Positions 1,409 through 37,795 of a stretch of 37,795 nucleotides of DNA are shown piece by piece. This DNA is from a virus. Both the position numbers and the translations under genes were made by a program. How positions within the stretch are numbered: position 1 is the first letter of the stretch; every line of letters starts with the position of its first letter. The stretch spans positions 1 to 37,795 of IMG/VR virus record IMGVR_UViG_3300019132_000022, one strand, 5' to 3'. The notes under the pieces were generated by a model. That model was given only the letters and a program-made list of their open reading frames with translations. It was not told where the DNA came from and did not search any database.

Positions 1409-1437
1409 ATTCTCGCGGTTGTCGGGCGGGAGTTGCG
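1409..1437 (-). promoter_or_regulatory. Promoter-like motif CGCAACTCC-N14-GAGAAT (family member 1)
   Basis: Read on the minus strand: CGCAAC tcccgcccgacaaccgc GAGAAT caagac ATG. The spacer between hexamers is 17 nt and the ATG at 1402 is 6 nt after the -10. Confidence 0.55.
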
Positions 1438-1936: not shown

Positions 1937-2145
1937 GCCACCACCTCCGCCCGACTCGCCAGCCAGCGCAAGAAGGTCATGTGCACCTTGGCGGGGTTGT
2001 AGATTGCGCCGCCGAGCGACTGCGCCTCCCGCCGCCACGCCGCATGGCACTCCGGACCGACGGGATAGCCCTCTCTCAGCAGCGGGAACGCCACGACGGC
2101 CACGCACGTCTCCCGCCCGCAGGCGCAGCACTGGCGCTCGCTCAC
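1933..2145 (-). CDS. Small Cys-containing hypothetical protein (70 aa)
   Basis: ORF track. GTGA overlaps at both ends (2145/2142 and 1936/1933). Contains CCACG...C...C...H. Confidence 0.65.
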   Translation of the reverse strand: MSERQCCACGRETCVAVVAFPLLREGYPVGPECHAAWRREAQSLGGAIYNPAKVHMTFLRWLASRAEVVA

Positions 2146-3251
2146 GGAGTCCCCCGCAGGGCGGCGAGGTCGCGCAGCAGGTGGGCCAGGGGTCGCCGGT
2201 GCAAGTACCTGGAGGCGGCGGCCTTGAGGTCCTCCCGCGTGTACACCTCCGGGGCGCCGGTGAGGGCCTTCACGGCAAGCGCCACGAGGTGTGGTGAAGC
2301 GAAATTGGGCGACCGGGCCACCTCCGTCACGACATGGGCCAGCGCCCCCATGCGGCGCTCTAGCATGGAGAGGGCGGTCACGGCGCGCTTCACTGTGTTG
2401 TCCCGCTCATCGTCAACAACGCTCTCCTCGCCGGCCTCTAGCCCATCGAGCGCCGTGGCGAACGCCTCGGCCGTGGTGGGCTCGGATTCCGGCGGTGCGT
2501 CGTGCGGGTGCTGCCCATCCCAGTCCTGCTGCGCCGGGCTCGACTCCTCCTCCAGCCCGTCCACCTCGGACGCGGGCCCTTCGGGCAGGGGTTGGTCCGC
2601 CTCACTCGTGGCATCGGGGTTGAGCGGCGCGGGTGCCCGATGCACCGCCAGCGCGCGGCGCGCCTCCGTCAGTTCACCGCAGATACACGCCGTTCCGCTC
2701 GGGGCGAGTTCATCCCCCGCCGGACACCCTTGTGTGTGACGCACGTCGGACACGGGCGCCGGGGCGTCGTCGCCGACGATGTAGCCGGACAGCGCCCGCC
2801 ACACGGCTTCGGGGCCCTTGCCCCACCGCGAGCGAATGAGGCGCTGAGCCGTCTGCTCATCCCCCGCCCGCTGGCGGATGGCGGCGAGGGCGGACTCGGC
2901 GACATCAGCGCGCTTCGTCTCGCGCGAGGTCCGCTGGAGCGCAGCCGTCAAGCGGCCCTTGTAGCCCGCCGCGTCCGCCTCCAGCGCCCGCCCCCGCTCG
3001 CGGAGGGCGTCGCGCTCGGCTAGTGCGCGCCCGAGCGCATCGATACGGTCACGCCTCGCCGATGGCGCAACGTGTTCGCCGAACTGCCGACCAAGAAGGT
3101 CGTCAATCCCGTCTATGGTTCGGCGCGCCTCGTCCCGCTCGGCCGTCAGCGCGGCGATGTGGTTCCACATCTGCGATTCGTCATCGCTCATCAGCCGCGC
3201 TGCATGTCGCGCCTTCATCGCCAGCAGTTCCCCCGTCGTCATCTTGCTCAT
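2142..3251 (-). CDS. Hypothetical coiled-coil protein (369 aa from MSKMTTGELL)
   Basis: ORF 2142..3383. The ATG at 3251 overlaps the upstream stop (ATGA). The N-terminal half is rich in Arg/Ala/Glu heptad-like sequence, with an acidic middle. Confidence 0.75.
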   Translation of the reverse strand: MSKMTTGELLAMKARHAARLMSDDESQMWNHIAALTAERDEARRTIDGIDDLLGRQFGEHVAPSARRDRIDALGRALAERDALRERGRALEADAAGYKGRLTAALQRTSRETKRADVAESALAAIRQRAGDEQTAQRLIRSRWGKGPEAVWRALSGYIVGDDAPAPVSDVRHTQGCPAGDELAPSGTACICGELTEARRALAVHRAPAPLNPDATSEADQPLPEGPASEVDGLEEESSPAQQDWDGQHPHDAPPESEPTTAEAFATALDGLEAGEESVVDDERDNTVKRAVTALSMLERRMGALAHVVTEVARSPNFASPHLVALAVKALTGAPEVYTREDLKAAASRYLHRRPLAHLLRDLAALRGTP

Positions 3252-3424: not shown

Positions 3425-3453
3425 ATTATCGGCCGGGCCGCTCCGGAGTTGCG
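3425..3453 (-). promoter_or_regulatory. Promoter-like motif CGCAACTCC-N14-GATAAT (family member 2)
   Basis: Minus strand: CGCAAC tccggagcggcccggcc GATAAT cagggaaagggaggcagc ATG(3406). Confidence 0.55.
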
Positions 3454-3629
3454 TCGCGCCTTTCGATTTCGTGCGCGTCGAAGAGGTGGAGGCGGCGGTG
3501 GGTGCCGTTGCTCCAGAGTCCGCAGCCGTCCTCCTCCCACCCCGCGTCGCGCAACTCGGCCGCCATCTCCTCGGCATTGGCCTTCAGCCACGGCAACAGC
3601 AGGGCCCCGAGGGTCTCCGGCGCGCTCAC
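3426..3629 (-). CDS. Hypothetical protein (67 aa from GTG 3629)
   Basis: C-terminal part of ORF 3426..4013 (VSAPETLGALLLPWLKANAEEMAAELRDAGWEEDG...). GTG 3629 overlaps the dnaB-like stop 3626-3628 (GTGA). Confidence 0.5.
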   Translation of the reverse strand: MSAPETLGALLLPWLKANAEEMAAELRDAGWEEDGCGLWSNGTHRRLHLFDAHEIERRDATPERPGR

Positions 3630-5104
3630 GTGCCCACCCCGCCGAAGGGCGGTGGGCGCTTGCCCTTGGCAGCATCCCTCGCCGCCCGCGCCTCCTCCTT
3701 GGCTGCCTGTGCGGCATCGGCCCTCTTCTTCGCCTCCGCCGCGAAGTCCACCACCCGTCCTCGCGATCGGTGGAGGAGGCCGAAGCGCCCGCCCTCCTCC
3801 TTCTCGAGCGCGGCGGTGACGCCCTTCGCGCCGCGGGTGTGCTTCACCACCGTGCAGAGCACTTCGCCGGGGAAATTGTCGGTGTCCTCCCAGTTGATGA
3901 GACACGAGCGCATTGCGGCGTCCAGGTAACCGGACTCCTTCAAGTCCTTCATCTTCGGCTGGGTGTTCTCTTCGCCGTCCCGGTTGAGGTGCCAGAGGAC
4001 GATGATGGCGCACTTGTGCCGGGCGCCCAGTGTCGCGAGCGTGTCCATGGCCCGGCCGATGGCGATGTCATAGCGGGCCTTCGCGTCCGTCGTGTAGCGA
4101 ATGCGCAAGCCGTGGTCGATGACGATGAAGCGCACCCCTTCGGCCAGCCACCGCTTGATTTCCTGGAGCACGTCCGGCCAGTCCGCAATGGGGGTGTCGC
4201 TGGCCATGGCCTCCGTGTCCACGTCCGAGGTGTCGTAGACAAAGAGGCGCTCGTTGAGCACCGAGAACGCCTCTTCGCACCACCGCACGTGTTCGTCCTG
4301 CTGGTGCTCATGGAGCCGCGCGAAACCCACCTTGCCGTAGTCCAACCCCAGGCGCCGCGCGGTGAGCCTGTCGAAGGCCCAGCCGGTGCCGTCCTCGAGC
4401 CCGAAGAGGCCGCCCTTGTGGCCCAGGCGGTGCGTCCAGTCCCAGATGCAGTCGGTGATGAGCCCCGTTTTGAAGCCTCCGGAACGGGCAGCCACCACGT
4501 TGAGGTTGTCGACGAAGCCGGGGAACACCTCGGCCAGCCCCTCATGGGGGACGGGCAGGTAGGGCTGCACCTCACCTCGCATGGCCTTCTCCCACCTGTC
4601 CTGCTGCGCGATGACGTCTTTCCCGCCCATTCGCAGGGGTCGGGTGGACTTCACGGCCTGAAGCGCCTGGATGCCCTCCAGGGCCGCGCGAGCGGGCGGG
4701 ACGTTGGGGTCATGCGCCAAGCCGACTACGTGGCGCCCTGCGCCTTCCAGGGCCCTTCTCTGGGCTGCGTCGCGGATGGCCGCCACGTAGGCCGCCACGT
4801 TCCACTCCACGGCAAGGGTCTGGTCCAGGCCCATGAGGTAGGCGATTTGGTTACTTTCGCCCTCAGTGGGTCGTTCCACACCCACCTCCGCCAGCCGCCC
4901 ACGGGCCTTGAGCCGCTCGGGGACGGTGAGCATATCGGACGGCTTGCCCTCTGCGGCCAGGGAGAGCATCACCTCCCACACGTGCCGGTGGCCGGGCCCC
5001 ACGAATTCGGCGGGGGTGAGGTCCGACACGTCCCGGACGGGGAGTTTCTGGGCGAGCACGAGCCCCAGAATCGCCCGCTCGGCTTCCATGGCCTGGAGGC
5101 TCAC
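3626..5104 (-). CDS. dnaB: DnaB-family replicative DNA helicase
   Basis: ORF 3626..5359. N-terminal AERAILGLVL is a DnaB N-domain signature. Walker A-like AARSGGFKTG and Walker B-like RFIVIDHGL are present. Start is GTG 5104 (GTGA overlap with the upstream stop) or ATG 5089. The tail is Lys/Ala-rich. Confidence 0.85.
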   Translation of the reverse strand: MSLQAMEAERAILGLVLAQKLPVRDVSDLTPAEFVGPGHRHVWEVMLSLAAEGKPSDMLTVPERLKARGRLAEVGVERPTEGESNQIAYLMGLDQTLAVEWNVAAYVAAIRDAAQRRALEGAGRHVVGLAHDPNVPPARAALEGIQALQAVKSTRPLRMGGKDVIAQQDRWEKAMRGEVQPYLPVPHEGLAEVFPGFVDNLNVVAARSGGFKTGLITDCIWDWTHRLGHKGGLFGLEDGTGWAFDRLTARRLGLDYGKVGFARLHEHQQDEHVRWCEEAFSVLNERLFVYDTSDVDTEAMASDTPIADWPDVLQEIKRWLAEGVRFIVIDHGLRIRYTTDAKARYDIAIGRAMDTLATLGARHKCAIIVLWHLNRDGEENTQPKMKDLKESGYLDAAMRSCLINWEDTDNFPGEVLCTVVKHTRGAKGVTAALEKEEGGRFGLLHRSRGRVVDFAAEAKKRADAAQAAKEEARAARDAAKGKRPPPFGGVGT

Positions 5105-6156
5105 AGGGCACCTCCCGCCGCCTTCAGCGCCCGGCCTTCCCACTGCGCTCGGCTCGCGAGGAAGTAGCCGAGGCTCCATGGGACGTCCATGCCCGCCCGC
5201 GTCTCGTCGGCGAGGTATTCGGCCCAGGCCGCGTTGAGCAGTTTGGCCTCCGGGCAGTCTTTCTCGAGCTTGGCCAGCGCCCCGAGGTCTCGGTTCATCC
5301 GGGCGGGCTTCCAGCCGTCGTCCACGAAGGTCACGCCTGCCTCGGCGCACCGCTCGCAACGACTGCCCTGAAGGTTCGAGTACAGGCGCTCGGCCTTCGA
5401 CGGCTCCCGGGGCTTCTTGCCTCCGGCGGGTGAGACGAGTTCCAGCGTCGGCCGCTCGCTGACGGGCTCGGCGTGGTCCGTCGCATCGGGCAGGTCATCG
5501 GCAGGTGGTGGGTCATCCACGGCACCACCGCCCAGTTGTTCAGGGATTACTGGCGCGGCGACAGCCGTCGCCTGCGAAGCAGAAACTCCTGCATCCTGCA
5601 TCCTGCATCCTGCATCCTGGGGGCGATACCCTTCGAGGAACCCATCCCCCATGGGTTCCTGGATGGGTTTGGCGAAGGCTTTGGCGAAGGCTTCCAGGAA
5701 GGGTTCCGGGTGCGCCAGAACCTCGCGTAATTGCTCACGAATTCCGGCGAGCGCGCGGTAGAGAAGCGAGCACTCGGGGAGGTCCATTCGGGCCACCTTG
5801 CGCCATGCGGCCACGACATTCGGGCCCGTCGGCGGCTCGTAGCGAGCGGCCTTCCGGAGCCACACCAACCCTGCGCCCCAGTCGGCCTCAACCATCCCTT
5901 CCCGGAAGGGTTGGGCGAACCCATCCCGGAACCCTTCCAGGGTGAGTCCACACAGCCGGGCAGCCTCCTCCTCATGCAGTGGGAAGAGTCCGGGGATGGA
6001 CGTTGTGCGTGGGTTCGTCAGGAGGAAGAGCCACACGGTGCGCCCGTTGGCGTTGAACGAGAGAAAGCGCCGGTCGTGCCAGAGCCGCGTGTCGATGCGG
6101 CGGTAGCGCCGCTCTCCGTGCTCTGGCTTGACCTGCCAGCTGGATTTCTCAGCCAT
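5101..6156 (-). CDS. Replication initiator / replisome-organiser-like protein (351 aa from MAEKSSWQV)
   Basis: ORF 5101..6261 with ATG 6156. It sits immediately upstream of, and is coupled to, the helicase gene. The N-terminus is winged-helix-like (RRIDTRLWHDRRFLSFNANGRTVWLFLLTNP), the linker is low-complexity, and the C-terminal domain looks conserved (WKPARMNRDLGALAKL...WAEYL). Function is inferred from position and architecture. Confidence 0.65.
   Translation of the reverse strand: MAEKSSWQVKPEHGERRYRRIDTRLWHDRRFLSFNANGRTVWLFLLTNPRTTSIPGLFPLHEEEAARLCGLTLEGFRDGFAQPFREGMVEADWGAGLVWLRKAARYEPPTGPNVVAAWRKVARMDLPECSLLYRALAGIREQLREVLAHPEPFLEAFAKAFAKPIQEPMGDGFLEGYRPQDAGCRMQDAGVSASQATAVAAPVIPEQLGGGAVDDPPPADDLPDATDHAEPVSERPTLELVSPAGGKKPREPSKAERLYSNLQGSRCERCAEAGVTFVDDGWKPARMNRDLGALAKLEKDCPEAKLLNAAWAEYLADETRAGMDVPWSLGYFLASRAQWEGRALKAAGGAL
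5588..5691. repeat. Repeat cluster inside the initiator gene: CCTGCAT x4.5, a 9-bp inverted repeat, and TTTGGCGAAGGC x2 (candidate origin iterons)
   Basis: CCTGCAT occurs at 5588, 5595, 5602 and 5609, with a partial copy at 5616-5619. ggaacccat (5637-5645) pairs with atgggttcc (5651-5659). tttggcgaaggc occurs at 5668-5679 and 5680-5691. Confidence 0.8.
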
Positions 6157-6308
6157 AGAAACGACACCGCCCCGCATCGCGCTCTCACACGCGAAGGGGG
6201 CGGCGGACTCCGAGAGGGATGGAGTCGTGAATGGGATACGCGAGGTGAGAGGCTCGCGCAAGCAGGAGGAATATGACGCTAGGGCGACCGCTCGTCAACC
6301 GGCCGCCG

Positions 6309-6629
6309 TCAAGGGCACTGCGTCGAGGCCCACAAGTCCTCGTCGTTCGGGTTGCCGTCCACGTCCACGTCGAGAGACCCGTGCGGAACGGACTCCAGGG
6401 CCTCGAGCGCGGCGGTGAGGGCGAGTGTGGTGGGGTGGTTCGCCGCGTTCTTCTGGTACCGGGCGCACCAGCGATAGAAGCGCGCGTGCTGGAGTGGCTC
6501 GTGTGGCCGGCCGTTGAGCACCGCCAGTCCCTTGGAGAAGCAACTTTGGCAGATGTCGGGCATGTACGGGTCCAGCGAGTCCGTATCGAAGATGTCACCG
6601 CAGCGAAGACAGGGGAGGCGGAGCGTCAA
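6309..6629 (-). CDS. Zn-ribbon protein (106 aa; CLRCG...CQSC)
   Basis: ORF track. TTG start at 6629 is preceded by AAGGAGG and overlaps the upstream stop. Two CxxC pairs are present. Confidence 0.7.
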   Translation of the reverse strand: MTLRLPCLRCGDIFDTDSLDPYMPDICQSCFSKGLAVLNGRPHEPLQHARFYRWCARYQKNAANHPTTLALTAALEALESVPHGSLDVDVDGNPNDEDLWASTQCP

Positions 6630-6871
6630 GAGGCCTCCTTGGCCGACTCTGCCTTAACCCAGCGCCGACGGTGCTTCGCGACTTCCTTCTTGAGGAACGT
6701 CGCGCCGAAGGCGGCCGCCGCCCTGACGTTGGGGTCCCTGGCCGTATCGAGAAACGCCTTGGACTGGAGCCATCGGTCCGAGTGCTCGGCACACAAACCG
6801 CAATCGCGGTCAACGTCCCTTGGTTCCGGGCCGTGCGGCCACGTGCATTGGTTTCGGTTCTTCGTGCTCAT
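6626..6871 (-). CDS. Hypothetical protein (81 aa)
   Basis: ORF track. ATGA overlap with the upstream gene at 6868-6871. Confidence 0.7.
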   Translation of the reverse strand: MSTKNRNQCTWPHGPEPRDVDRDCGLCAEHSDRWLQSKAFLDTARDPNVRAAAAFGATFLKKEVAKHRRRWVKAESAKEAS

Positions 6872-7119
6872 GGCTGGTTATCGCTCCGGGGCTGGGGAAG
6901 TTGCTTCGCGCGCGAGCGGCGCTGGCGAACACGCTTGGGCACCCAACCCGCCGCGGCGAGAGCGATACGGAAGCGAGGCTCTGACACCCGCCTGTTGCGC
7001 GCGGCCTCACCCATGGAGAGGCCGCCCGTCATGACGTCCTCCACGGCGCGCCTCAGGCGCTTCGCCCTCTCTGTCGCCTCCTGCTGCATGAGGGCGGAGC
7101 GCTCAGGTGCGGCGTTCAT
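6868..7119 (-). CDS. Helix-turn-helix DNA-binding protein (83 aa from MNAAPERS)
   Basis: ORF 6868..7194 with ATG 7119 in an ATGA overlap. LSMGEAARNRRVSEPRFRIALAAAG looks like an HTH, and the tail is basic. Confidence 0.65.
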   Translation of the reverse strand: MNAAPERSALMQQEATERAKRLRRAVEDVMTGGLSMGEAARNRRVSEPRFRIALAAAGWVPKRVRQRRSRAKQLPQPRSDNQP

Positions 7120-7319
7120 GGCGTCACGTCCTTCCAGACGCCGCGCTTGCACTCGGAGACCGTCAAACGGTTGCGCGTGAGCCGAGCCACCCACGAGAGC
7201 TGGCCGCGCACCGTGGTGACGGCTGCACCCTGCTGTCGCAGCGTTGCCTCATCGCCGGTGATGCGCTCCAGCAACTCACCCTTGCGGTTCCGCAGCACTA
7301 GCGTCCATATGTCGCTCAT
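7116..7319 (-). CDS. Small conserved protein, paralog A of 14714..14926 (67 aa from MSDIWTLV)
   Basis: ORF 7116..7370 with ATG 7319 in an ATGA overlap. It shares LRxQGAAxTTxRGQLxW...CKRGVW with the second copy. Confidence 0.7.
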   Translation of the reverse strand: MSDIWTLVLRNRKGELLERITGDEATLRQQGAAVTTVRGQLSWVARLTRNRLTVSECKRGVWKDVTP

Positions 7320-7510: not shown

Positions 7511-7539
7511 TTGATACAGCGCGGGGCGGCTTGACGCAA
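7511..7539 (-). promoter_or_regulatory. Leftward sigma70-like promoter TTGCGT-17-TATCAA
   Basis: Minus strand: TTGCGT caagccgccccgcgctg TATCAA tgtcgcAGGAGGtgccga ATG(7492). Its -35 overlaps the -35 of the rightward promoter. Confidence 0.5.
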
Positions 7540-7559
7540 CATGGGGCATCGCGTATGTT
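7531..7559 (+). promoter_or_regulatory. Rightward sigma70-like promoter TTGACG-17-TATGTT
   Basis: TTGACG (7531-7536), a 17-nt spacer, then TATGTT (7554-7559). The first ATG (7567) follows 7 nt after the -10. Confidence 0.55.
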
Positions 7560-7566
7560 ATTGGAA

Positions 7567-8100
7567 ATGGGATGGCGCATGAGCGAAGCAATGGCGCGGC
7601 TGGGGGAATTCATAGGTGCGCTACGGGGCCCTGAGGCGCGCGCCGTTATGGACGATATCGTGGCCGTTCGCGAGGAGGCGCGCGATGAGGGCCGGAGGGA
7701 GTTGCGCCAGCGCGCCGAGCGCGCGGAGGCAACGCTGCATGTGCGCTCCGTTCAGCTGGCCGAGATGGAGCGCTCGCAGGCGGCAGGGGCTGAGCGCATC
7801 CTGGAGTTGATGGCGAGCCTCCAGCGCGCGGAGGCGGACAACGCGGCGTTGCTGCTGTTCCTCCGCGAGGCGGCCGATGACCTGGAGGACGCGGGATGTC
7901 CGTCGCACGCCGTCAACCCACGCGCCGCCGCCGACGGCGCCCACCCCGGCGCCGCGATGCTGGAGCGGATGCGGGCGCTGGAGGCCATCCGCGACGCGTT
8001 GGTGGCCACGCAGGGGCAGGACCGCCTCTGCGAGGACGAGACCACCGAGACGCTCATGTCGCTGGTCCGTGCCGCCGACGCACTGAGGGTGGCGCCATGA
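7567..8100 (+). CDS. Hypothetical coiled-coil protein, first gene of the rightward arm
   Basis: ORF 7486..8100. In-frame ATGs occur at 7567, 7579 and 7591. 7567 was chosen because of the promoter geometry (leaderless). The protein is Glu/Ala/Arg-rich and helical. Confidence 0.65.
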   Translation: MGWRMSEAMARLGEFIGALRGPEARAVMDDIVAVREEARDEGRRELRQRAERAEATLHVRSVQLAEMERSQAAGAERILELMASLQRAEADNAALLLFLREAADDLEDAGCPSHAVNPRAAADGAHPGAAMLERMRALEAIRDALVATQGQDRLCEDETTETLMSLVRAADALRVAP

Positions 8101-8756: not shown

Positions 8757-9727
8757 GTCTCTCGCCCGAGGACGCGAAGAAGATAGGCGGGTCGGACGTG
8801 GCCGCCATCGTCGGCGTGAGCCCATACGCTGGCCCGCTATCGGTCTGGTGCCGCATCGTCCACGGTGCGGACTCGCCGGACAACGCGCACACGGGGCGGG
8901 GGCGGCGCCTAGAGCCCGTCGTCCTGGACTGGTACCGCGAGACGACGGGGCATCTCGTCGAGGAGGGTGTGCGACTCCGAGACCCGCGACGCCCCTATGT
9001 GCGTGGGTCGCTGGACGCCATCGCCTCGAATGGCCCATGGAATCCACGCGTGGTGGAGGTGAAGACGGCGAATGCCTCGCAGATGGGATACTGGGGCGAC
9101 GAGGGGACAGACGCCATCCCACCGTGGTACCTCGCCCAGGTGCACTTCTACCTCGGCTTCGGCCGCGAGACGGGCGTGGTGAGTGACGACGTGGCCGACG
9201 TCCCGGCGCTCATCGCCGGGGACTTCCGCCTGTACCACGTGCGGCACGACGCGGAGGTGTACGCCGCGCTCTCGGAGGCCGTTGACCGCTTCTGGGTGGA
9301 CCATGTGCTCCCGCGCAGGCCGCCCGAGCCCACGCCCCTGCCCCGCGACCTGGAGAGCGTCTCCCGGGCCTTCCGCCGCTCCGAGGGTGGCGCGGTGGAC
9401 TTCGCCAGCCTCCCGCCGGAGACACAGGTGGTGCTCGAGGAGTATCTCCGTGCCTGGGAGGAGGAGTCAGCCGCGGCGGACCGGCGGGCCCTTTGGGAGG
9501 CGCGGACGAAGTTGGCGCTGGGCTCCGTTCCTGCCGTGCGCGGGCTGCCGCTCGGTTTTTCGAGCCTGTCCTGGGGCGAGCAGGGCGGGAAGACGCAGTG
9601 GAAGCGCGTGGCCGAGGCGCTGGCGAAGAATCACGGACTGGAGAAGCAACTTCGGGCGCTGGTCGCCGAGAATACCGGGGAGGCCTCACGGCCCTTCACG
9701 CCACGCAAAACGAGGAAGAAGACATGA
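8753..9727 (+). CDS. YqaJ-like (lambda Exo-type, PD-(D/E)xK) recombination exonuclease
   Basis: GGSDVAAIVGVSPYAGPLSVW, RGRRLEPVVLDWY and GSLDAI...VVEVKT match the YqaJ viral recombinase motifs. Paired with recT two genes downstream. Confidence 0.85.
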   Translation: MSLSPEDAKKIGGSDVAAIVGVSPYAGPLSVWCRIVHGADSPDNAHTGRGRRLEPVVLDWYRETTGHLVEEGVRLRDPRRPYVRGSLDAIASNGPWNPRVVEVKTANASQMGYWGDEGTDAIPPWYLAQVHFYLGFGRETGVVSDDVADVPALIAGDFRLYHVRHDAEVYAALSEAVDRFWVDHVLPRRPPEPTPLPRDLESVSRAFRRSEGGAVDFASLPPETQVVLEEYLRAWEEESAAADRRALWEARTKLALGSVPAVRGLPLGFSSLSWGEQGGKTQWKRVAEALAKNHGLEKQLRALVAENTGEASRPFTPRKTRKKT

Positions 9728-10074
9728 TTGGACAGTCATACGGGGCGACCGGCATCACGGTCTGGGAGATAGGCCGAGATAAGTGGCACGCGGAGGCGCG
9801 CTTCTTTGATGACGGCTTCGCGGAGTTGGGGTCGAGCGAGGGCGTCATTCGGACGCGGTACGTCGGCCCGCTGGCGCGCGTGGTGGACATCGTGAAGGCG
9901 GATGCTGAGCGTATGGGCATCCGGTGGTCTAACCCCGCCCACCATGCGCCGTGCATCTACTACGAGGGCGACGGAGAGAACCCCGCCCACCCGGCGCCGC
10001 AGGGGTGGCGAACGCGCATATCCGCTGAGTGCGAGCGGCTGGGGTGGTGCAACATCTACAAGGAGCAGGCATGA
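9724..10074 (+). CDS. Hypothetical protein (116 aa)
   Basis: ATG 9724 is in an ATGA overlap, within ORF 9493..10074. Confidence 0.7.
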   Translation: MIGQSYGATGITVWEIGRDKWHAEARFFDDGFAELGSSEGVIRTRYVGPLARVVDIVKADAERMGIRWSNPAHHAPCIYYEGDGENPAHPAPQGWRTRISAECERLGWCNIYKEQA

Positions 10075-12219: not shown

Positions 12220-12585
12220 GTGCCCCGCTCGCCCCTGCTGCCGCTCCTCCGCGTTGGTGCCGCACTCGCCGTGGGGTGCGTGCTGCTCTACTGCCCGCGG
12301 CGAAAGCAGCCGGCGCCATTCCGCCCTCCGGAGCCAGCCGTCTGGGCGACGGACATCGCGCCCAGTGCCCCGGGGTGGCTTCAGGTGGGGCTGAAGGCGA
12401 CGGGCCCGCTGCCCGGCCAGAAGCGCCCGCCGTGCACGCCCGTGAGGGAGCGCGAGTTGGTGGGCGCCTGCTGGATTGGGACGGAGCACCGCCCGCCCTG
12501 CCCGGAGGCCGTCTATGAGGTGGCCAGCCGCTGCGTCCTGCCCGTCGGCGTGGCCACCCGGGAGCCTATGACGCTGGGACGCTAG
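12220..12585 (+). CDS. Secreted or lipoprotein-like Cys-rich protein (121 aa)
   Basis: ORF track with a GTG start. N-terminal signal-like LLPLLRVGAALAVGC, then Pro-rich sequence with four further Cys residues. Confidence 0.55.
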   Translation: MPRSPLLPLLRVGAALAVGCVLLYCPRRKQPAPFRPPEPAVWATDIAPSAPGWLQVGLKATGPLPGQKRPPCTPVRERELVGACWIGTEHRPPCPEAVYEVASRCVLPVGVATREPMTLGR

Positions 12586-12749
12586 CGCCAGAGGATGGCA
12601 GCCAGGACCCCGGGCAGAATCTCCCGGGCCTTGTCGTCCCAGAAGGCGCGGCCCTTGTCGGAGCAGTCAACGTAGAGGCGAACGGCGAGTCCGGACTCAC
12701 GATAGGCACGGGCAAGGGCGGCGGCGAAGACGGCGATGGGAGTGGTCAT
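12582..12749 (-). CDS. Small hypothetical protein (55 aa, MTTPIAVFAAALARAY...)
   Basis: C-terminal part of ORF 12582..13052. ATG 12749 lies 6 nt downstream of the GATAAT of promoter motif 12756-12784. Convergent with 12220..12585, overlapping it by 4 nt. Confidence 0.45.
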   Translation of the reverse strand: MTTPIAVFAAALARAYRESGLAVRLYVDCSDKGRAFWDDKAREILPGVLAAILWR

Positions 12750-12755
12750 GCGGGG

Positions 12756-12784
12756 ATTATCGGAGCGAGCGGGCAAGAGTTGCG
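12756..12784 (-). promoter_or_regulatory. Promoter-like motif CGCAACTCT-N14-GATAAT (family member 3)
   Basis: Minus strand: CGCAAC tcttgcccgctcgctcc GATAAT ccccgc ATG(12749). Confidence 0.5.
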
Positions 12785-14421: not shown

Positions 14422-14649
14422 TCACGTGGCTGCCCCGGTCTCCCGCTCTTCGCGGAGTCGCCACGCCGCGCGCAGCATTCGCGCGGCACCAACCACGGCC
14501 TGGGCCAACGCCTCCCGGCCGTTGTTGCGCTCCTCCCAGTCACGGGCCACGAGCACCCTATCGCTGCTCAGGATGGTCTCAGTTCCACGGTCGTGCGCCT
14601 CCAGTTCGTCAACGGCGCGTTCAAGTTGCTCTTGCAGTACGGGCTTCAT
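14422..14649 (-). CDS. Hypothetical helical protein (75 aa from MKPVLQEQ)
   Basis: Internal ATG 14649 of ORF 14422..14865, preceded by AGGAGG and by promoter motif 14667-14695. Confidence 0.65.
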   Translation of the reverse strand: MKPVLQEQLERAVDELEAHDRGTETILSSDRVLVARDWEERNNGREALAQAVVGAARMLRAAWRLREERETGAAT

Positions 14650-14666: not shown

Positions 14667-14695
14667 ATTCTCGGGCCGAGGCTCGAGGAGTTGCG
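14667..14695 (-). promoter_or_regulatory. Promoter-like motif CGCAACTCC-N14-GAGAAT (family member 4)
   Basis: Minus strand: CGCAAC tcctcgagcctcggccc GAGAAT cagaacAGGAGGacgta ATG(14649). Confidence 0.55.
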
Positions 14696-14713
14696 TGGCC
14701 ATTTCCCGGGGAA

Positions 14714-14926
14714 TTACTGCGGCGTCCACGGCAGGGCCGTCCAGACGCCGCGCTTACAGACGGCCACCCTCCCGCCGTTGCGGAGCAGGTAGCACGTCCA
14801 GGCGAGTTGGCCCCGGAGGGTGGTGATGGCGGCGCCCTGCTCACGGAGGTCCGCCTCCTTGCCACGCGCCCGGTCCCAGAGGTCGCCCTGGCGGTTGTAG
14901 ATGACGAGCGAGTAGGTGGGGTCCAT
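14714..14926 (-). CDS. Small conserved protein, paralog B of 7116..7319 (70 aa from MDPTYSLV)
   Basis: Internal ATG 14926 of ORF 14714..15067. Shares LREQGAAITTLRGQLAW...CKRGVW with copy A, and the 16-nt string tccagacgccgcgctt at the DNA level. Confidence 0.7.
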   Translation of the reverse strand: MDPTYSLVIYNRQGDLWDRARGKEADLREQGAAITTLRGQLAWTCYLLRNGGRVAVCKRGVWTALPWTPQ

Positions 14927-14928
14927 GA

Positions 14929-15120
14929 CTACTCCGGCAGGTTGGGGAGGAGGGCTCGGATGCGGGCGGCTTCGGCGCGGTGGCTCTCGGTCACAGCATC
15001 CGCCACGCGCTTGCTGCCCTTGTCGGCGTAGGGGTCCGTGGAGACGAGGTCCCACTCGTCCGCCCATTTCTCCAGCCGCTCCGCTCGTTGCTGCGCTTCA
15101 GCTTTGGTCTTGAAGGTCAT
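14929..15120 (-). CDS. Small helical protein (63 aa from MTFKTKAEAQ)
   Basis: Internal ATG 15120 of ORF 14929..15186, 5 nt downstream of the GACAAT of promoter motif 15126-15154. Confidence 0.6.
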   Translation of the reverse strand: MTFKTKAEAQQRAERLEKWADEWDLVSTDPYADKGSKRVADAVTESHRAEAARIRALLPNLPE

Positions 15121-15125
15121 GCGGA

Positions 15126-15154
15126 ATTGTCGAAGCGGCCCCGGAGGAGTTGCG
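15126..15154 (-). promoter_or_regulatory. Promoter-like motif CGCAACTCC-N14-GACAAT (family member 5)
   Basis: Minus strand: CGCAAC tcctccggggccgcttc GACAAT tccgc ATG(15120). Confidence 0.55.
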
Positions 15155-15504
15155 AAGGAATCGACGGGGTCAGAGATGACCCACACCCCAACCTATAGTT
15201 CTCGCCCATCCATAGGAATTACCTCATTGACTCCCACCCATGCGCACGTGCGACATCTTCTCCCGCGCGTCCGACGCTGCCCCGGTGGACTCCCTCCGCG
15301 TCCGAGAGCCGCTGCGGTCGCCCTGCTGCGGGCTTCCCCCGCAAGACGAACGACGCCGCTGAGTCATCCGCTCGCAGCCGTACCGCGAGCGGTGACTCGC
15401 GCCCCCCCCGGCGCGTGGGAGGGCCCCCGGAGGGTGCGGCTTCGTCGGCTTCTCCGTCGGGCACTGGTGCCGAGACTCCACCAGCAGAGAAATTCGGCGG
15501 CGCG
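15155..15504. other. Hairpin-rich non-coding spacer between divergent motif promoters (possible structured RNA or regulatory region)
   Basis: No convincing ORF. Hairpins: gggtca/tgaccc 15166-15181; gcggg/cccgc 15328-15342; ccgctcgc/gcgagcgg 15368-15392; cgcgcc/ggcgcg 15398-15415. Palindrome ggcac-tg-gtgcc at 15460-15471. Confidence 0.4.
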
Positions 15505-15533
15505 CGCAACTCCGCGGCGGACTGCCCGACAAT
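15505..15533 (+). promoter_or_regulatory. Promoter-like motif CGCAACTCC-N14-GACAAT (family member 6)
   Basis: Plus strand: CGCAAC tccgcggcggactgccc GACAAT, 35 nt upstream of ATG 15569. Confidence 0.55.
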
Positions 15534-15568
15534 CCACGCATACCCGACACACACGGAGCCGACACCCC

Positions 15569-15823: not shown

Positions 15824-15886
15824 GTGGCGGAAATGAATCGGAAATGCCGAGGAAACTCCGGCGGGGTGAGGCGCGAGAATGGAGGC

Positions 15887-16132: not shown

Positions 16133-17085
16133 GAAATGGCATGGCTTTACGTCCCCCCGCCACCTGCATCAGCGTCTGCTCCGGCGTCGGAGGTCTCGAC
16201 CTCGGACTCCACTCCGCCACGGGAATGGAGCCTGTGGTGTACATCGAGCGGGAAGCCCACTCTGCGGCCGTCCTCGTGGCCAGGATGGAAGAAGCGGCTC
16301 TGTCACGAGCGCCTATCTGGGACGACGTGTGCACCTTCGATGCTCGACCGCTGGTGGGACTCGTGGATTGCGTCGCGGGCGGAACGCCGTGCCAAGACCT
16401 CTCCCTCGCCGGCAAGCGGGCTGGACTTGACGGAGCGCGCTCCCGCCTCTTCTTCGAGCACGTCCGACTTGCCCGAGAATGCGAGGCGCCCTTCATTTTC
16501 TGGGAGAACGTTGCCGGGGCAGCTGGAGTTATTCCCGCCGTCGCCGAGCACCTCCACGCTGTCGGCTATGAGCGCATCGTCTGGACCGACGTGCGTGCGA
16601 GTGATGTGGAGGCCCCCCACCGGCGCGCCCGCGTCTTCCTTCTGGCCTACTCCCAGAGCTTCGGAGAACGAGAACCGCACAACGACCAACGCCCCGAGTC
16701 ACGGGAACGGCCACGGCAAGACGCTGGCCGGGGCGTCCTGCGACGCGATGAGGGAATGGCCGACGCCGAACGCCAGGGACTGGAAGGACAACGGGGACGG
16801 CGTGGACTGGGCGAAGGTGGACGCCCGCTCGAAACTGGCGGGGGCGGCCGTCGTGTCTTCCCTCCAGCGCGAGACGACCTCGCCACCTGGGGGCAAGTCC
16901 TTGCCGCCCGGCCGGACCTCGCTCCGGCTGTCTCCGGACTTCGCCGACTGGATGATGGGCTGGGAGCCCGGCTGGACGTGTGCCTGTGCCCGAGGGAGGA
17001 CCGGCTACGTGCTGCTGGAAACGGCGTCGTCCCCCAGCAAGCAGCCCTCGCATGGCGAATCCTGTGGGGCGTGCTCAATCACTGA
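16129..17085 (+). CDS. DNA (cytosine-5)-methyltransferase whose conserved motifs are split between two reading frames (A to B to A); possibly frameshifted or a pseudogene
   Basis: Frame A (16129..) carries CSGVGGLDLG (motif I), GGTPCQDLS (IV), FIFWENV (VI), HRRARVFLLA (VIII) and, at the end, RLRAAGNGVVPQ (X). Frame B (16136..17089) carries WPTPRASE (16643-), WPTPNARDWKD (16757-) and DFADWMMGWEPGWT (16937-16978). Both frames are open throughout. Confidence 0.8.
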   Translation: MRNGMALRPPATCISVCSGVGGLDLGLHSATGMEPVVYIEREAHSAAVLVARMEEAALSRAPIWDDVCTFDARPLVGLVDCVAGGTPCQDLSLAGKRAGLDGARSRLFFEHVRLARECEAPFIFWENVAGAAGVIPAVAEHLHAVGYERIVWTDVRASDVEAPHRRARVFLLAYSQSFGEREPHNDQRPESRERPRQDAGRGVLRRDEGMADAERQGLEGQRGRRGLGEGGRPLETGGGGRRVFPPARDDLATWGQVLAARPDLAPAVSGLRRLDDGLGARLDVCLCPREDRLRAAGNGVVPQQAALAWRILWGVLNH

Positions 17086-17108
17086 TTAATTCGTCCGGAA
17101 ATTCGGGA

Positions 17109-17138
17109 CGCAACTCCGAGATGTCCTGGCTCGATGAT
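17109..17138 (+). promoter_or_regulatory. Promoter-like motif CGCAACTCC-N15-GATGAT (family member 7; 18-nt hexamer spacing)
   Basis: Plus strand: CGCAAC tccgagatgtcctggctc GATGAT, upstream of ATG 17176. It lies right after the methyltransferase stop. Confidence 0.45.
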
Positions 17139-17175
17139 TGTGTATCCCAGCGCGGCGCTGCCGCAGGAGAGACAC

Positions 17176-17334
17176 ATGGACTACCACAAGCTCAGCACCG
17201 AAGCCCTGAAGCAGATTGAGGCCACCGCCCGCCAGGAGATTCAGAAGGGCGAAGCGCAGAGCACCAGCAAGCGCATCATGAAGGCGCGTTACGGTGTCCT
17301 CGGTGCGGTGAGCGCAGTCCTCGCGACGCGGTAG
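17176..17334 (+). CDS. Small protein (52 aa, MDYHKLSTEALKQIEATARQEIQKGE...)
   Basis: Internal ATG of ORF 17134..17334, preceded by GCAGGAGAG. Confidence 0.6.
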   Translation: MDYHKLSTEALKQIEATARQEIQKGEAQSTSKRIMKARYGVLGAVSAVLATR

Positions 17335-17346
17335 GCAACACCAACC

Positions 17347-17372
17347 AGCGGGGCGCCAGCACGGGCCCCGCT
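17347..17372 (+). terminator. Stem-loop between the small ORF and the late genes
   Basis: agcggggc (17347-17354) pairs with gccccgct (17365-17372). No U-tract. Confidence 0.45.
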
Positions 17373-17385
17373 AACGGAGGATGAG

Positions 17386-17844
17386 ATGGGCTACCGCATG
17401 CCAAGCGGATATGTAGGACGGGCGCAGCACCAGCCGAGCAGTATCAACCCGGAGGCAGGCGTTTGCGGAGCGGCGCGGCGGAGCTTTCGACGCATCGCGT
17501 TGGCGGCATCTCCGGGTCGCGTCTCATGCGAGCGCTGTCACGACAGGATGGCCGTTGCGCTGCTGTCCGCCCTCCGGTTGCTCGCGCCTGCTACGCGGGT
17601 TCAGGTGCCTACGGGCGTTAATGACCTCGTGCGACTCCTGGGGGACGCGGGCGGGTGCGCGGTTGCGGTCTACGGCTCTGGCCGTCAAGCGGATACAGAC
17701 GGGCGCTCTGTAAGCGCCGCACTGTCGCGGGGTCTCATTCATCGCATAGGCGGGCGCGCATATGCGTTCGCCCTTACCGGCGCCGGGTGGCGCCACTACC
17801 ACGCCCCGTCCGTAACGCGAGAGCCCATCCGCGAGACGCAGTAG
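17386..17844 (+). CDS. Hypothetical protein with atypical codon usage (152 aa)
   Basis: ORF track with an RBS (ACGGAGG). More A/T-ending codons than its neighbours. Its position before the TerS-like gene is compatible with a DNA-binding or packaging accessory role. Confidence 0.5.
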   Translation: MGYRMPSGYVGRAQHQPSSINPEAGVCGAARRSFRRIALAASPGRVSCERCHDRMAVALLSALRLLAPATRVQVPTGVNDLVRLLGDAGGCAVAVYGSGRQADTDGRSVSAALSRGLIHRIGGRAYAFALTGAGWRHYHAPSVTREPIRETQ

Positions 17845-17910
17845 CAGCACGGCCCGCCGGGGCCTCCCCGGCGCCTTGCCACCCCGGCCTCCCCGTGCGA
17901 CCATGTAGGC

Positions 17911-18483
17911 ATGGCACCTGAGAGCAGGACGGCTCACGCACCCGAGCCCGAAAGAGACCCATCGGGGAGGTGGCAGGCGGGCGGGCCCTCCCCCAACCCT
18001 GGCGGCCTGTCCCGCTCGCACCGGGAACTCCGGAAGGCGTTCGCGGAGCGGGTGCCCGACGCACTGGCCCAGGTGGACAAGTGGCTGAAGTCCGACGACT
18101 TCGAGCAGCAGCGCGCGGCGGTGGAGACGGTGCTCACCCGCGCCCTCGGAAAGCCCGCGAAGTCGTCGGAGTTGCCCCCGCTGGAGTCGTCTCCCGCTGT
18201 CGCACCTGAGCAGGCGGACACCGGGGCCATGCTCGTGGAGGTGCGGCACATGCTGGCGCGCGGGCTGTCCGTGCTGAAGTCGCAGCAGGAGGCCGGGGAA
18301 CTCGGGCCGGACGGACTGGAGTCCCTCGGGCGGCTCGGTCACTCCCTTGGAGTGCTCGTGGAGACGGAAGCGAAGGCAGCGCGGGCGTCGAAACTGTCCG
18401 CCCTGTCCGTGGATGAACTCGTGGATCTCATCCCGCTCGAGGTGCTCGAGGCGGCGGTGACGAAGAGGAAGGCGGGGACATGA
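17911..18483 (+). CDS. Putative small terminase subunit / DUF5681-like protein
   Basis: GRWQAGGPSPNPGGLSRSHRELRKAF resembles the G.SGNP.GR motif of DUF5681-type TerS proteins. It lies upstream of terL. Confidence 0.5.
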   Translation: MAPESRTAHAPEPERDPSGRWQAGGPSPNPGGLSRSHRELRKAFAERVPDALAQVDKWLKSDDFEQQRAAVETVLTRALGKPAKSSELPPLESSPAVAPEQADTGAMLVEVRHMLARGLSVLKSQQEAGELGPDGLESLGRLGHSLGVLVETEAKAARASKLSALSVDELVDLIPLEVLEAAVTKRKAGT

Positions 18484-37601: not shown

Positions 37602-37795
37602 ATGCCCTACGCCCGCCTGTTGCTGTGTCTCGCCGTCCTGGCCGCCACTGTCGCCCTTGCCGGGCCGCCGCTCCTCACACCTACCCTCTCCGTGCCCGGG
37701 CTCTTCCCGCAGCTCTGGGCGGGCATCTTCCACGACGTGACGGAGCGCATGGAGGCTCTGACGAAGGCCGGGGCTGAGCGATTCAACCTCAAGAC
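37602..37795 (+). CDS. N-terminal part of the junction-spanning secreted protein (signal peptide MPYARLLLCLAVLAATVALA/GPP)
   Basis: ATG 37602 is in frame with 2..481 through the 99-bp repeat. It has a classical hydrophobic signal sequence with an AxA-like cleavage site. Confidence 0.7.
   Translation, partial: MPYARLLLCLAVLAATVALAGPPLLTPTLSVPGLFPQLWAGIFHDVTERMEALTKAGAERFNLK
37697..37795. repeat. Terminal direct repeat, identical to 1..99
   Basis: Exact 99/99 match read directly. Confidence 0.95.

Follow-up and report, generated by a model that had tools for sequence, protein, structure and literature searches.

A second class of putative promoters in an uncultured podovirus-like phage that probably infects myxobacteria

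A bipartite, promoter-like motif that recurs throughout the genome of an uncultured phage raises the question of which factor reads it. The original prediction listed seven copies, each consisting of a 9-mer followed by a GAnAAT hexamer, and considered three mechanisms: an alternative or phage-specified sigma factor, an activator overlapping the -35, or a repressor operator shared by all early promoters. The window analyzed here, the whole 37,795-nucleotide stretch of IMG/VR record IMGVR_UViG_3300019132_000022, holds a circularly assembled, podovirus-like genome of 37,696 bp (69% GC) that encodes proteins of bacterial type, such as DnaB and RecET, and uses Shine-Dalgarno sequences. No cultured relative or host emerged from searches with megablast, TerL and capsid: 8 kb gave 0 megablast matches to isolated phages, tblastn with TerL gave only distant matches of at most 35% identity (Rhizobium, Salmonella and Stenotrophomonas phages), and a capsid search against isolated phages found nothing. 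A TerL profile run against a genome collection returned distant MAG matches only (‘Proteobacteria bacterium’, Kofleriaceae, Bdellovibrionales). Scanning the window for Rfam families and tRNAs gave no matches, and most early phage proteins carry no Pfam or PHROGs annotation. The host of this uncultured phage is probably myxobacterial. Few myxobacterial phages have been characterized so far, and literature searches covering the motif, FliA-dependent phage promoters, and myxophage and Myxococcus promoter maps turned up no account of this promoter class.

Ten co-oriented sites with a fixed geometry

All seven sites of the original prediction are present at their coordinates and on their strands. 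Three further sites bring the family in the window to ten, all matching a[C/A/G]G[C/a]AACT[C/T]C-N13(14)-CGAnAA[T/C]. The putative class-2 promoters, their PWM scores, the units that they precede and the gene that overlaps one of them are as follows.

1409..1437, (-) strand: putative promoter, CGCAACTCC-N13-CGAGAAT, 30.7 bits; ATG at 1402, 6 nt past the box, opening a leaderless 84-aa ORF (1148-1402), then two more small genes, ending at a hairpin (494-524)
3425..3453, (-) strand: putative promoter, CGCAACTCC-N13-CGATAAT, 32.6 bits; 18-nt leader with Shine-Dalgarno sequence, ATG at 3406, 52-aa zinc-ribbon-like ORF, then a protein of ~369 aa (2142-3251) and ORF 1933-2145
6877..6905, (-) strand: putative promoter, new, AGCAACTTC-N13-CGATAAC, 29.3 bits; lying within the small HTH gene, at its 3' end; ATG at 6871, 5 nt past the box, opening a leaderless 81-aa ORF (6626-6871)
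9645..9673, (+) strand: probable internal promoter in the 3' end of recE, new, AGCAACTTC-N13-CGAGAAT, 30.2 bits; ATG at 9724, 116-aa ORF, then recT
12756..12784, (-) strand: putative promoter, CGCAACTCT-N13-CGATAAT, 29.8 bits; ATG at 12749, 6 nt past the box, opening a leaderless 55-aa ORF (12582-12749); a reverse-oriented single-gene cassette
14667..14695, (-) strand: putative promoter, CGCAACTCC-N13-CGAGAAT, 30.7 bits; GGAAAT and AATTCC blocks directly upstream; 17-nt leader, ATG at 14649, 75-aa ORF, then ORFs as far as 13962
15126..15154, (-) strand: putative promoter, CGCAACTCC-N13-CGACAAT, 25.5 bits; ATG at 15120, 5 nt past the box, opening a leaderless 63-aa ORF (14929-15120), then 14714-14926
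15505..15533, (+) strand: putative promoter, CGCAACTCC-N13-CGACAAT, 25.7 bits; conserved 35-nt leader (..tacccgacacacacggag..), ATG at 15569, 84-aa ORF
15851..15880, (+) strand: putative promoter, new variant, GGAAACTCC-N14-CGAGAAT, 27.0 bits; two GGAAAT blocks upstream; ATG at 15887, 6 nt past the box, opening a leaderless 81-aa ORF, then 16136-17089
17109..17138, (+) strand: putative promoter, CGCAACTCC-N14-CGATGAT, 26.8 bits; TAATTC and GGAAATTC blocks upstream; 37-nt leader with a conserved GCGGC-nnn-GCCGC hairpin (17152-17164), ATG at 17176, 52-aa ORF; the final unit before the terS/late operon
6868..7119, (-) strand: 83-aa helix-turn-helix (HTH) protein of three helices, AlphaFold model pLDDT 78.5

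The PWM scores are bimodal, with all ten sites at 25.5 bits or above and the next-best site of the window at 9.9; the maximum among shuffled controls was 17. In the window, CGCAAC-N17-GAnAAT has 6 exact matches against 0.01 expected, and the core G[C/A]AAC-N16-CGAnAA[C/T] gives 8 matches against 0.02. The exact 9-mer is likewise in excess, with 7 copies against 0.65 in dinucleotide shuffles; the earlier estimate from 4^9 had ignored the 69% GC content. Given that 0.65 copies are expected by chance, the orphan copy at 7698-7706, which lacks a CGA box at the right spacing, loses its value as evidence for an operator. The near copy CGCAACTCG exists, at 3550-3558 rather than at 3549-3557.

The base 5' of GA is C in 10/10 window sites, so that the second box is better written CGAnAA[T/C]. 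Across the 33 sites of the window and its relatives, G occupies -12 in every one and C occupies -13 in 31; CGAnAA is found in 30 and CGATAA in 16. T at -12 never occurs and the last base of the box (-7) is C in 8/33, a quarter of the sites, which is at odds with the proposal of a sigma70-like -10. With a length of 10 nt, the upstream box is asymmetric and shows neither a dyad nor repeated half-sites, and an A directly precedes the 9-mer in 28/32 sites. Its AAC core (A-32, A-31, C-30) is present in 10/10 sites of the window, the sites in relatives having been retrieved with patterns that already required AAC, and it sits 16-17 nt upstream of CG. The spacer between the boxes measures 13 nt, or 14 nt in 2/10 window sites and 5/33 overall.

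All ten window sites are co-oriented with a downstream gene. Furthermore, an ATG lies 5-6 nt past the second box in half of them (5/10), and in 11/33 sites across six phages, which implies leaderless mRNAs. AT-rich blocks (GGAAAT/AATTCC) that look like UP elements lie 5-25 nt upstream of many intergenic copies; they are optional and their distance varies. Transcription is predicted to start at class-2 sites. An extended -35 box, aCGCAACTCC, would span -36 to -27, and a -10 box, CGAnAA(T/C), would span -13 to -7. The start would then fall 5-6 nt past the -10 box, often on the A of the leaderless ATG.

Coexistence with canonical promoters and conservation among related phages

The original prediction placed the motif at every early operon start. 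The switch and dnaB operons depart from this, carrying canonical promoters, here termed class-1:

7531..7559, (+) strand: class-1 promoter PR at the switch, TTGACG-N17-TATGTT
7511..7539, (-) strand: class-1 promoter PL, TTGCGT-N17-TATCAA, from sequence inspection; upstream of the RHH gene (ATG at 7492)
6270..6298, (-) strand: class-1 promoter, TTGACG-N17-CATATT, upstream of the ORF starting at 6156 and of dnaB

A consensus scan for primary-sigma promoters finds the switch promoter and the one before dnaB and reports no class-2 sites. Because these main early operons use canonical TTGACG/TTGCGT-N17-TAnnnT promoters, the class-2 sites constitute a second promoter class coexisting with the first in one genome. 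The ACGCAAC within the switch, previously taken for a copy of the motif, is an overlap of two divergent -35 hexamers, TTGACG of PR and TTGCGT of PL. A GGAAAT block lies just downstream of the PR -10 (7563-7568). In phages C and I, the canonical switch promoters place their -10 six nucleotides before an ATG, the same geometry as in leaderless class-2 sites. Functionally, class-2 sites may control some ten small cassettes of the accessory or moron-like kind, as well as a few larger genes, with the lysis-lysogeny switch and the dnaB operon on ordinary TTGACN-N17-TAnnnT promoters; the phage would thereby gain an expression channel that is switchable separately.

The motif recurs in related phages. 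Five sister phages from independent samples carry 5, 8, 5, 3 and 4-5 class-2 copies, and in orthologous alignments both boxes are invariant while spacers and flanks diverge. The site at 15851-15880 has orthologues in phages C, D and E, and that at 9645-9673 is conserved in phages B and C, where its conservation is confounded by coding sequence. At 6877-6905, the boxes coincide with a conserved tail, RAKQLPQPRSDNQ, of HTH proteins that are otherwise only 55–67% identical; this tail would be frozen because the promoter lies inside the HTH gene. More distant relatives have 0 class-2 sites, and even close relatives with 65–68% TerL identity lack them entirely, confining the motif to one phage sub-clade. 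We considered an analogous, different box in these motif-less relatives and rejected it, as their CGAnAAY matches are codon-driven and intragenic. The absence from close relatives, presumably on similar hosts, would fit a phage-borne factor equally well. Several sites coincide exactly with mosaic junctions; at A3453, C2076 and F17810 a conserved upstream flank gives way to unrelated downstream genes, the site at 3425-3453 being a junction common to phages C and F. Among sister phages, one promoter-plus-leader unit precedes different genes in differing orientations.

Class-2 sites also occur outside this clade. A 44.5-kb contig, Ga0196960_10000048, has six within 3.5 kb and no protein similarity to the window, and another mobile-element-like contig has four in one stretch. 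The only cellular contig with a class-2 promoter is a myxobacterial chromosomal contig, on which an ATG 5 nt past the box starts a gene with RTX and Peptidase_M91 domains. This contig also encodes TIGR02268 (‘Myxococcus xanthus paralogous family’, 203 bits), a Ser/Thr kinase and a histidine kinase. In effect, the cellular evidence comes from a single locus, with two paralogues whose promoters derive from duplication, and the RTX/M91 promoters could themselves have been deposited by a phage. Other single-site matches in high-GC metagenomes look mostly like chance, and no sigma genes were found among the ORFs downstream of them. Single chance matches dominated an initial scan of viral contigs that used a 14-base pattern.

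Which factor reads the class-2 sites

ECF promoters offer a close comparison: those of B. subtilis sigma-X, -M, -V and -W carry AAC in the -35 and CGT or CGAC in the -10, and the sigma-X autoregulatory promoter uses CGAC (PMC5758882). Class-2 sites share the AAC core with group 4 ECF promoters (GCAAC/GAAAC in the phages, TGtAAC, GCAAAC and TGAAAC in ECF promoters), have a CG that opens the -10 at the same 16-17 nt after AAC, and likewise adhere very closely to consensus. However, the class-2 -10, CGAnAA(T/C), is longer than the common ECF CGT(C/A), with seven conserved positions and an A-rich continuation; it has CG in 31/33 sites with A always next, and its AAT/C continuation is atypical for ECF. 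The 10-nt upstream box, the lack of a known cognate sigma/anti-sigma pair, and the gathering of about ten promoters in a single phage genome instead of a small cellular regulon are further differences. A cognate ECF sigma has sigma-2 and sigma-4 domains alone, and its own gene is usually transcribed from a promoter of the type it reads.

The -10 also finds a counterpart in sigma-28 (FliA/SigD/WhiG) promoters, TAAAGTTT-N11-GCCGATAA (E. coli ChIP-seq sites, PMC4183435 Table 2). The core (CGATAA then C or T) and its register are identical, the 11-nt gap between 8-mers is common to both, and natural FliA sites with the -35 TCAACTTC are one base off GCAACTTC. With the E. coli FliA matrix, family members make up 4 of the top 6 matches in the phage genome, in the same register. 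The two GC positions upstream in the FliA -10 GCCGATAA are indistinguishable from the GC-rich background of the phage. In contrast, the consensus -35 TAAAGTTT is unmatched, since only AA and T agree; just half of the sites have T as the fourth base of the class-2 box, and the class-2 -35 half GCAACTCC adds roughly -1.4 bits under the E. coli FliA matrix (sum of matrix values). The inferred host also differs, being a myxobacterium, a group that to our knowledge lacks flagella and FliA.

Among phage systems, T4 middle promoters combine a MotA box with a sigma-70 -10 (TAnnnT) and need MotA and AsiA, and the Streptomyces phage phiC31 has unusual early promoters. Like these, class-2 sites form a uniform phage-wide set with a -35 region unlike the host primary consensus, beside ordinary early promoters. 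Unlike T4 middle promoters, the class-2 -10 has no T at -12 and the phage has no detectable MotA- or AsiA-like protein in PHROG or Pfam matches; unlike phage-specific secondary classes, class-2 sites occur on a bacterial chromosomal contig as well. Two other systems were rejected. A T7-like single-subunit polymerase promoter is contradicted by the absence of a polymerase gene and by a bipartite motif with a free spacer, and archaeal BRE/TATA elements by bacterial genes (DnaB, RecET), the use of Shine-Dalgarno sequences and AT-rich blocks at variable distance.

The primary sigma is a poor fit, with CGCAAC in place of a TTGACA-like -35 (a dissimilarity that the original prediction had rightly pointed out), G at -12 throughout and C at -7 in 8/33 sites. 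The invariant G-12, the near-invariant C-13, AAC at -32 to -30 and the fixed spacing resemble ECF-type and sigma-28-type promoters instead. Of the three mechanisms first proposed, an alternative sigma fits best because of these features and because canonical promoters serve elsewhere in the genome, while the phage-specified version of that proposal found no gene: the ~52 phage proteins contain no Sigma70_r2/r4 or RNA polymerase domains (Pfam E up to 0.05; PHROGs), and the DxDxD catalytic motif is absent from the large ones. As the phage has no recognizable sigma gene, a host sigma (ECF-like) is the most likely candidate. With moderate confidence, we interpret class-2 sites as a dedicated second set of sigma-70-family promoters, for which the host RNA polymerase would carry a non-primary sigma, most likely an ECF-like one of a myxobacterial host. 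It counts against this reading that an ECF sigma normally stays inactive and governs a small regulon; ten phage promoters would depend on its activity in infection or lysogeny. Our inference extends to which sigma is used, where it comes from, the host and when expression occurs.

One alternative is a phage-encoded activator. The primary host sigma might read GAnAAT as a weak -10, with an activator on the CGCAACTCC box replacing -35 recognition, through class II activation or sigma appropriation, to give middle or delayed promoters. We consider this unlikely. At 10 nt, the asymmetric box exceeds the length of most -35 elements, within the phage family the motif occurs in just one sub-clade, and there is a candidate in the 83-aa HTH protein, which would be expressed from PL. 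It is the only non-structural protein common to the motif-bearing phages A, B, D and F, and the motif-less relatives H and I lack it. Phage D encodes it within a class-2-driven operon, and the protein's non-significant Foldseek matches include sigma region-4 domains. Yet a -35-bound activator would not impose G-12 (33/33), C-13 (31/33) and a frequent C-7, none of which is a primary-sigma preference. Moreover, a viral contig of 49.7 kb, of which 20 kb were read and showed no motif, encodes an HTH homologue (49% identity), and none was found in the stretches read of L267/L282 and L240 (4-6 sites) or in the myxobacterial contig L321; the tblastn query was the window's own HTH only, and among these loci only L227 matched. 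Foldseek against the PDB gave nothing below E = 0.37 for this protein and a PDB profile search was empty, leaving it a weak candidate cofactor. Of the binders first suggested, it alone is conserved in motif-bearing phages, yet with a relative in a motif-less phage; the RHH and XRE-type proteins are not. A sigma encoded by the phage itself would have precedents in T4 gp55/gp33 and further sigmas specific to phages. Such a sigma, or a split or sigma-like factor that has diverged beyond what Pfam and PHROGs recognize, seems decidedly improbable here: the restriction to one sub-clade and other mobile-element-like contigs, the near-consensus uniformity typical of phage-specific promoter sets and the many unannotated early proteins speak for it, but no suitably sized protein is present in all motif-bearing and no motif-less genomes. 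Non-structural families are shared in three cases: the 83-aa HTH, a coiled-coil/acidic protein of ~370 aa and a helical protein of 173 aa, the last of which also occurs in the motif-less phage I. The chromosomal myxobacterial site would need a separate explanation as well. A related and quite unlikely scenario has a phage-borne specificity factor without a recognizable sigma domain, either the HTH as a stand-alone region-4 replacement or another unannotated early protein, retargeting host RNA polymerase to aCGCAACTCC/CGAnAAY. If true, polymerase would be redirected in a new way, one into which chromosomal genes are wired, and the RTX/M91 genes would be phage-inducible, for example as an infection-triggered toxin.

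Two further readings fare worse. The 9-mer as an operator for a phage repressor or regulator common to early promoters would account for its overlap with the -35 region of many units, and GGAAAT blocks are found ahead of several sites and also just after the PR -10. This appears highly improbable, as the box lacks dyad symmetry and repeated half-sites, is always co-oriented with a gene, and keeps a locked spacing of 13-14 nt to a second conserved box as well as a fixed distance to start codons; the switch lacks the motif, the orphan copy is at chance level, and the window's RHH and XRE-type proteins are not conserved in sister phages. We attach equally little weight to the 29-30-mers being primarily recombination or boundary sequences of mobile cassettes instead of promoters. 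Sites do fall exactly at mosaic junctions (A3453, C2076, F17810), with promoter-plus-leader units before different genes and orientations, but a bipartite motif with a free spacer, strict co-orientation and an ATG 5-6 nt downstream are promoter features, and no recombinase or integrase was found in the phage. The boundary and promoter readings are compatible, since junctions at promoters are expected if shared promoters act as homology patches.

Consequences for the phage and its cassettes

The analysis yields a precise and testable promoter consensus consisting of two boxes, their spacing, a start point and two stereotyped leaders, and it assigns this consensus to an uncharacterized transcription channel of an uncultured lineage of phages whose hosts are probably myxobacteria. 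Myxobacteria have many alternative sigmas, and for the majority we know of no promoter consensus. Should a host ECF-like sigma read class-2 sites, the phage sites would multiply the known targets of that sigma, and a temperate-like phage would have placed a quarter of its transcription units under a stress or alternative sigma of the host. The promoter-plus-leader cassettes, leaderless ones included, are candidate orthogonal expression parts for high-GC hosts, and they mark recombination joints in the mosaic genomes of this phage group.

Like the morons of temperate phages, class-2 cassettes are small one- or few-gene units, often reverse-oriented, that have their own promoter and are shuffled among relatives. 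They differ in sharing one non-primary promoter type and stereotyped leaders, and several are leaderless. Two units, those of the sites at 1409-1437 and 14667-14695, have a terminator-like hairpin at their downstream end.

The motif family in the window

The motif family is real. All seven sites of the original prediction were found at their positions and on their strands, and CGCAAC-N17-GAnAAT has six exact matches in the window against 0.01 expected from dinucleotide-preserving shuffles. Likewise, the exact 9-mer of the first box (aCGCAACTCC, the 9-mer in capitals) occurs seven times where shuffles predict 0.65, and the stripped core G[C/A]AAC-N16-CGAnAA[C/T] occurs eight times (0.02 expected). 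The chance estimate originally derived from 4^9 possible 9-mers left out the GC content of 69%, and the corrected background yields about half a copy. Because that much is expected by chance, the 'orphan' 9-mer at 7698-7706, which had been singled out as special, needs no special explanation; it is a chance-level copy without a CGA box at the correct spacing.

Further members were sought by relaxing the patterns, then by scoring against a matrix of 33 curated sites. Exactly ten window sites score at least 25.5 bits, with the next best at 9.9 and a maximum of 17 in 30 shuffles; since the matrix was trained on the same sites it scores, the absolute scores are partly circular, but the gap is still clear. 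The seven predicted members stand, and three more join them.

Sites added to the family in the window
6877-6905, minus strand, AGCAACTTC-N13-CGATAAC
15851-15880, plus strand, GGAAACTCC-N14-CGAGAAT
9645-9673, plus strand, within the end of recE

The predicted GAnAAT hexamer is present, although its description missed a preceding C and a choice of T or C at the end. Because C precedes GA in 31 of the 33 sites and the following G is invariant, the second box is better written CGAnAA(T/C), with C as its final base in eight sites. An A stands directly 5' of the 9-mer in 28/32 sites, a position outside every search pattern. A spacer of 13 nt is found in 28 sites, one of 14 nt in five. GGAAAT/AATTCC-type pentamers lie within 35 nt upstream of 19 sites, compared to 2.6% of background 35-mers, and are missing mostly from sites inside coding sequence. 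GGAAAT blocks are located just upstream of four promoters of the family (positions include 14701-14706, 15829-15845 and 17097-17102), at one of them as a tandem pair about 11 nt apart (15829/15840), and directly downstream of the -10 of PR, the rightward switch promoter (7563-7568). Over the whole genome their count is mildly raised (11 against 6.2 expected). Such blocks could be UP-like elements or half-sites of a regulator.

Canonical promoters and start-codon geometry

The ends of the window repeat 99 nt (1-99 = 37697-37795), and the circularly assembled genome of 37,696 bp is thus circular or terminally redundant. Its products include a podovirus-like particle, whose adaptor is of SU10 type, as well as DnaB, RecE/RecT and a large terminase; no integrase, tRNA or Rfam element was found in the window. 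The circular junction (37602 to 481) is crossed by an ORF of 191 aa whose N-terminus resembles a signal peptide and whose C-terminus is hydrophobic, and a terminator-like hairpin (494-524, reported on the minus strand) separates this plus-strand ORF from the convergent minus-strand unit. A consensus scan gave two canonical promoters in the early half of the genome, the first two listed below, both exactly placed.

Canonical promoters in the window
7531-7559, plus strand, TTGACG-N17-TATGTT, before the first rightward gene
6298-6270, minus strand, TTGACG-N17-CATATT, before the ORF preceding dnaB
7539-7511, minus strand of the switch, TTGCGT-N17-TATCAA, before the RHH gene
17876-17913, TTGCCA-N17-GACCAT-N6-ATG, weak promoter of the terS/late operon

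The ACGCAAC in the switch, previously read as a motif copy, arises where the -35 hexamers of the divergent promoters at 7531-7559 and 7539-7511 overlap. The terS-like gene encodes 190 aa with an NPGG motif and is apparently leaderless behind the weak canonical promoter cCTTGCC-N17-GACCAT-N6-ATG (17874-17913), which is conserved in type: TTGGCn-N17/18-TAGCAT or GATAGT occupies the equivalent position in sister phages. From the canonical promoters at the switch, before dnaB and at terS, the host primary sigma appears to be of ordinary specificity, and the CGCAAC class appears to be something other than promoters of that factor.

At every site of the family a co-oriented ORF lies downstream. Its opening ATG is found 5 or 6 nt past the second box at five window sites (ATGs at 1402, 6871, 12749, 15120 and 15887) and at 11/33 overall, which would be exactly the distance for a leaderless mRNA starting at the A; at the other sites a leader of 15-50 nt carries a Shine-Dalgarno sequence. 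A -10 followed by six bases and ATG likewise occurs in two related phages, at the divergent canonical promoters of the switch (e.g. TTGACC-N17-TATCGT-cgcatc-ATG), and this places the second box in the normal -12 to -7 register. The leader behind the 17109 promoter (17139-17175) contains a hairpin, GCGGC-gct-GCCGC (17152-17164), just 5' of the Shine-Dalgarno sequence; its stem is kept in sister phages B, D and E and in L286, with a variable loop (gct, acc, gcacc).

Several minor features of the genome were also observed. The 576 nt between a 52-aa ORF and terS (17335-17910) are without a gene call in public assemblies and hold an ORF (17386-17844) of weak coding signal; in phages D and C, terS directly follows the small gene. 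A fourfold tandem TGCATCC (5590-5617), inside an unannotated ORF upstream of dnaB (5101-6156, minus strand), could be an iteron-like origin element. Two paralogous proteins of 67 and 70 aa (7116-7319 and 14714-14926, both minus strand) share ..NR.G.L..R..G.EA.LR.QGAA.TT.RGQL.W..; one gene lies in the operon of PL, the leftward switch promoter, and the other behind the 15154 promoter.

Conservation in sister phages and occurrence elsewhere

TerL and a 1093-aa virion protein led to five sister phages in other samples, recovered as genomes or fragments. Their TerL proteins are 86-87% identical to that of the window (determined for four of the five), and they carry 5, 8, 5, 3 and 4-5 sites. In alignments of orthologous sites both boxes are invariant, while spacer and flanks vary freely. 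Several sites coincide with mosaic joints, where the upstream flank is conserved and the downstream genes are unrelated. In the cases of window 3425-3453, phage C 2076 and phage F 17810, this flank is the terminal part of the gene that follows dnaB, and neither box has been lost. Phage B has its orthologue of the 17109-17334 cassette in inverted orientation with respect to the terminase gene. More distant relatives (TerL identity 65-68%, 51% and 43%), including a prophage on a 411-kb scaffold, had no site above 10 bits in the near-complete genomes of 35-37 kb or the stretches available.

A metagenome scan for ACGCAACTCC-N13-CGATAAT returned 97 stretches, most of them with a single match and of low or medium GC content, which is the chance expectation; the high-GC matches include further relatives of the window phage. 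Near-consensus sites precede small ORFs on a 44.5-kb contig (six in 3.5 kb; L267 231-3500, with L282 the same sequence) and on a 43.5-kb contig (four in 2.9 kb; L240 1118-2310), whose ORFs resemble neither the window phage nor any PHROG. The leader ..gtacccgccgcac.ggagg.. of window 15534-15568 recurs at four of the six L267 sites. On two short orthologous contigs and a contig with a DnaC-like loader gene, each ATG lies 5-7 nt past the box.

The 45-kb contig L321 (Ga0126314_10000102) is plainly chromosomal and myxobacterial. TIGR02268 ('Myxococcus xanthus paralogous family') is matched there with 203 bits, and further genes encode a Ser/Thr kinase, a vWA protein and a hybrid histidine kinase. 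At 7839-7875 a gap of 5 nt separates the motif from the ATG of a 495-aa RTX and Peptidase_M91 effector-like protein, and a paralogue 2 kb away (about 9778-9890) has a degenerate copy. This is the only cellular instance of the promoter type found. The evidence, one duplicated locus, is suggestive of Myxococcota as the host group and of a cellular reader.

Candidate factors reading the promoters

On sequence grounds, the family is a promoter class distinct from the canonical promoters of the phage. The original prediction had offered an alternative or phage-specified sigma, an activator overlapping the -35, or a shared operator as explanations. The operator is not supported, and the alternative sigma fares best. 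Both the invariant CG at -13/-12 and a tolerated C at -7 speak against primary sigma, and because a protein bound at the -35 would not impose them, sigma-A with an activator ranks below an alternative sigma. The approximately 52 phage proteins showed neither a sigma nor an RNA polymerase domain, nor a DxDxD motif, and a host (myxobacterial, ECF-like) sigma is more likely than a phage sigma as the reader.

The motif is similar to two known kinds of promoter. Like ECF promoters, it has an AAC core and, 16-17 nt downstream, a -10 box that opens with CG; the next base is A throughout the family where ECF boxes typically read CGT, although CGAC is used by sigma-X, and adherence to consensus is close at ECF sites (PMC5758882). 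With sigma-28 promoters it has in common the -10 core CGATAA(C/T), the register and an 11-nt gap; authentic FliA sites of E. coli, TCAACTTC-N11-GCCGATAT among them, are one base off the phage box (PMC4183435). Scoring the window with a matrix of the 25 strongest FliA sites of E. coli placed four family members among the top six matches, in the same register, but the scores came from the -10 half only. The likely host group, the myxobacteria, is not known to have flagella; for this reason we take the likeness to sigma-28 as no more than that, and consider an ECF-like kind more probable.

The 83-aa helix-turn-helix (HTH) protein encoded at 6868-7119 is a weak candidate cofactor. It is the sole non-structural protein common to the window phage (A) and motif-bearing phages B, D and F, and is absent from two motif-less relatives. 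Its model is a long helix plus a helix-turn-helix (pLDDT 78.5). PDB searches by structure and by sequence gave no significant relative, and the non-significant matches were a mix of DeoR, TrpR, Psq-type and sigma-4 domains. Among 1.84 billion 50%-identity cluster representatives, the family comprises 34 (50-135 aa), with three more sub-threshold matches in larger proteins of 230-853 aa. One homologue is encoded in a 49.7-kb viral contig, and the motif was not found in the 20 kb read there. The tail RAKQLPQPRSDNQ is near-invariant among proteins otherwise 55-67% identical (window 6868-6905, minus strand; L218, L217, P0074-P0080) because its codons are the two boxes of an embedded promoter; amino-acid changes in the tail map to spacer codons. 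In the sequence ATGA the HTH stop codon shares bases with the leaderless ATG of the following gene, and more distant family members have another conserved tail, RRRTFGNGKRHGT.
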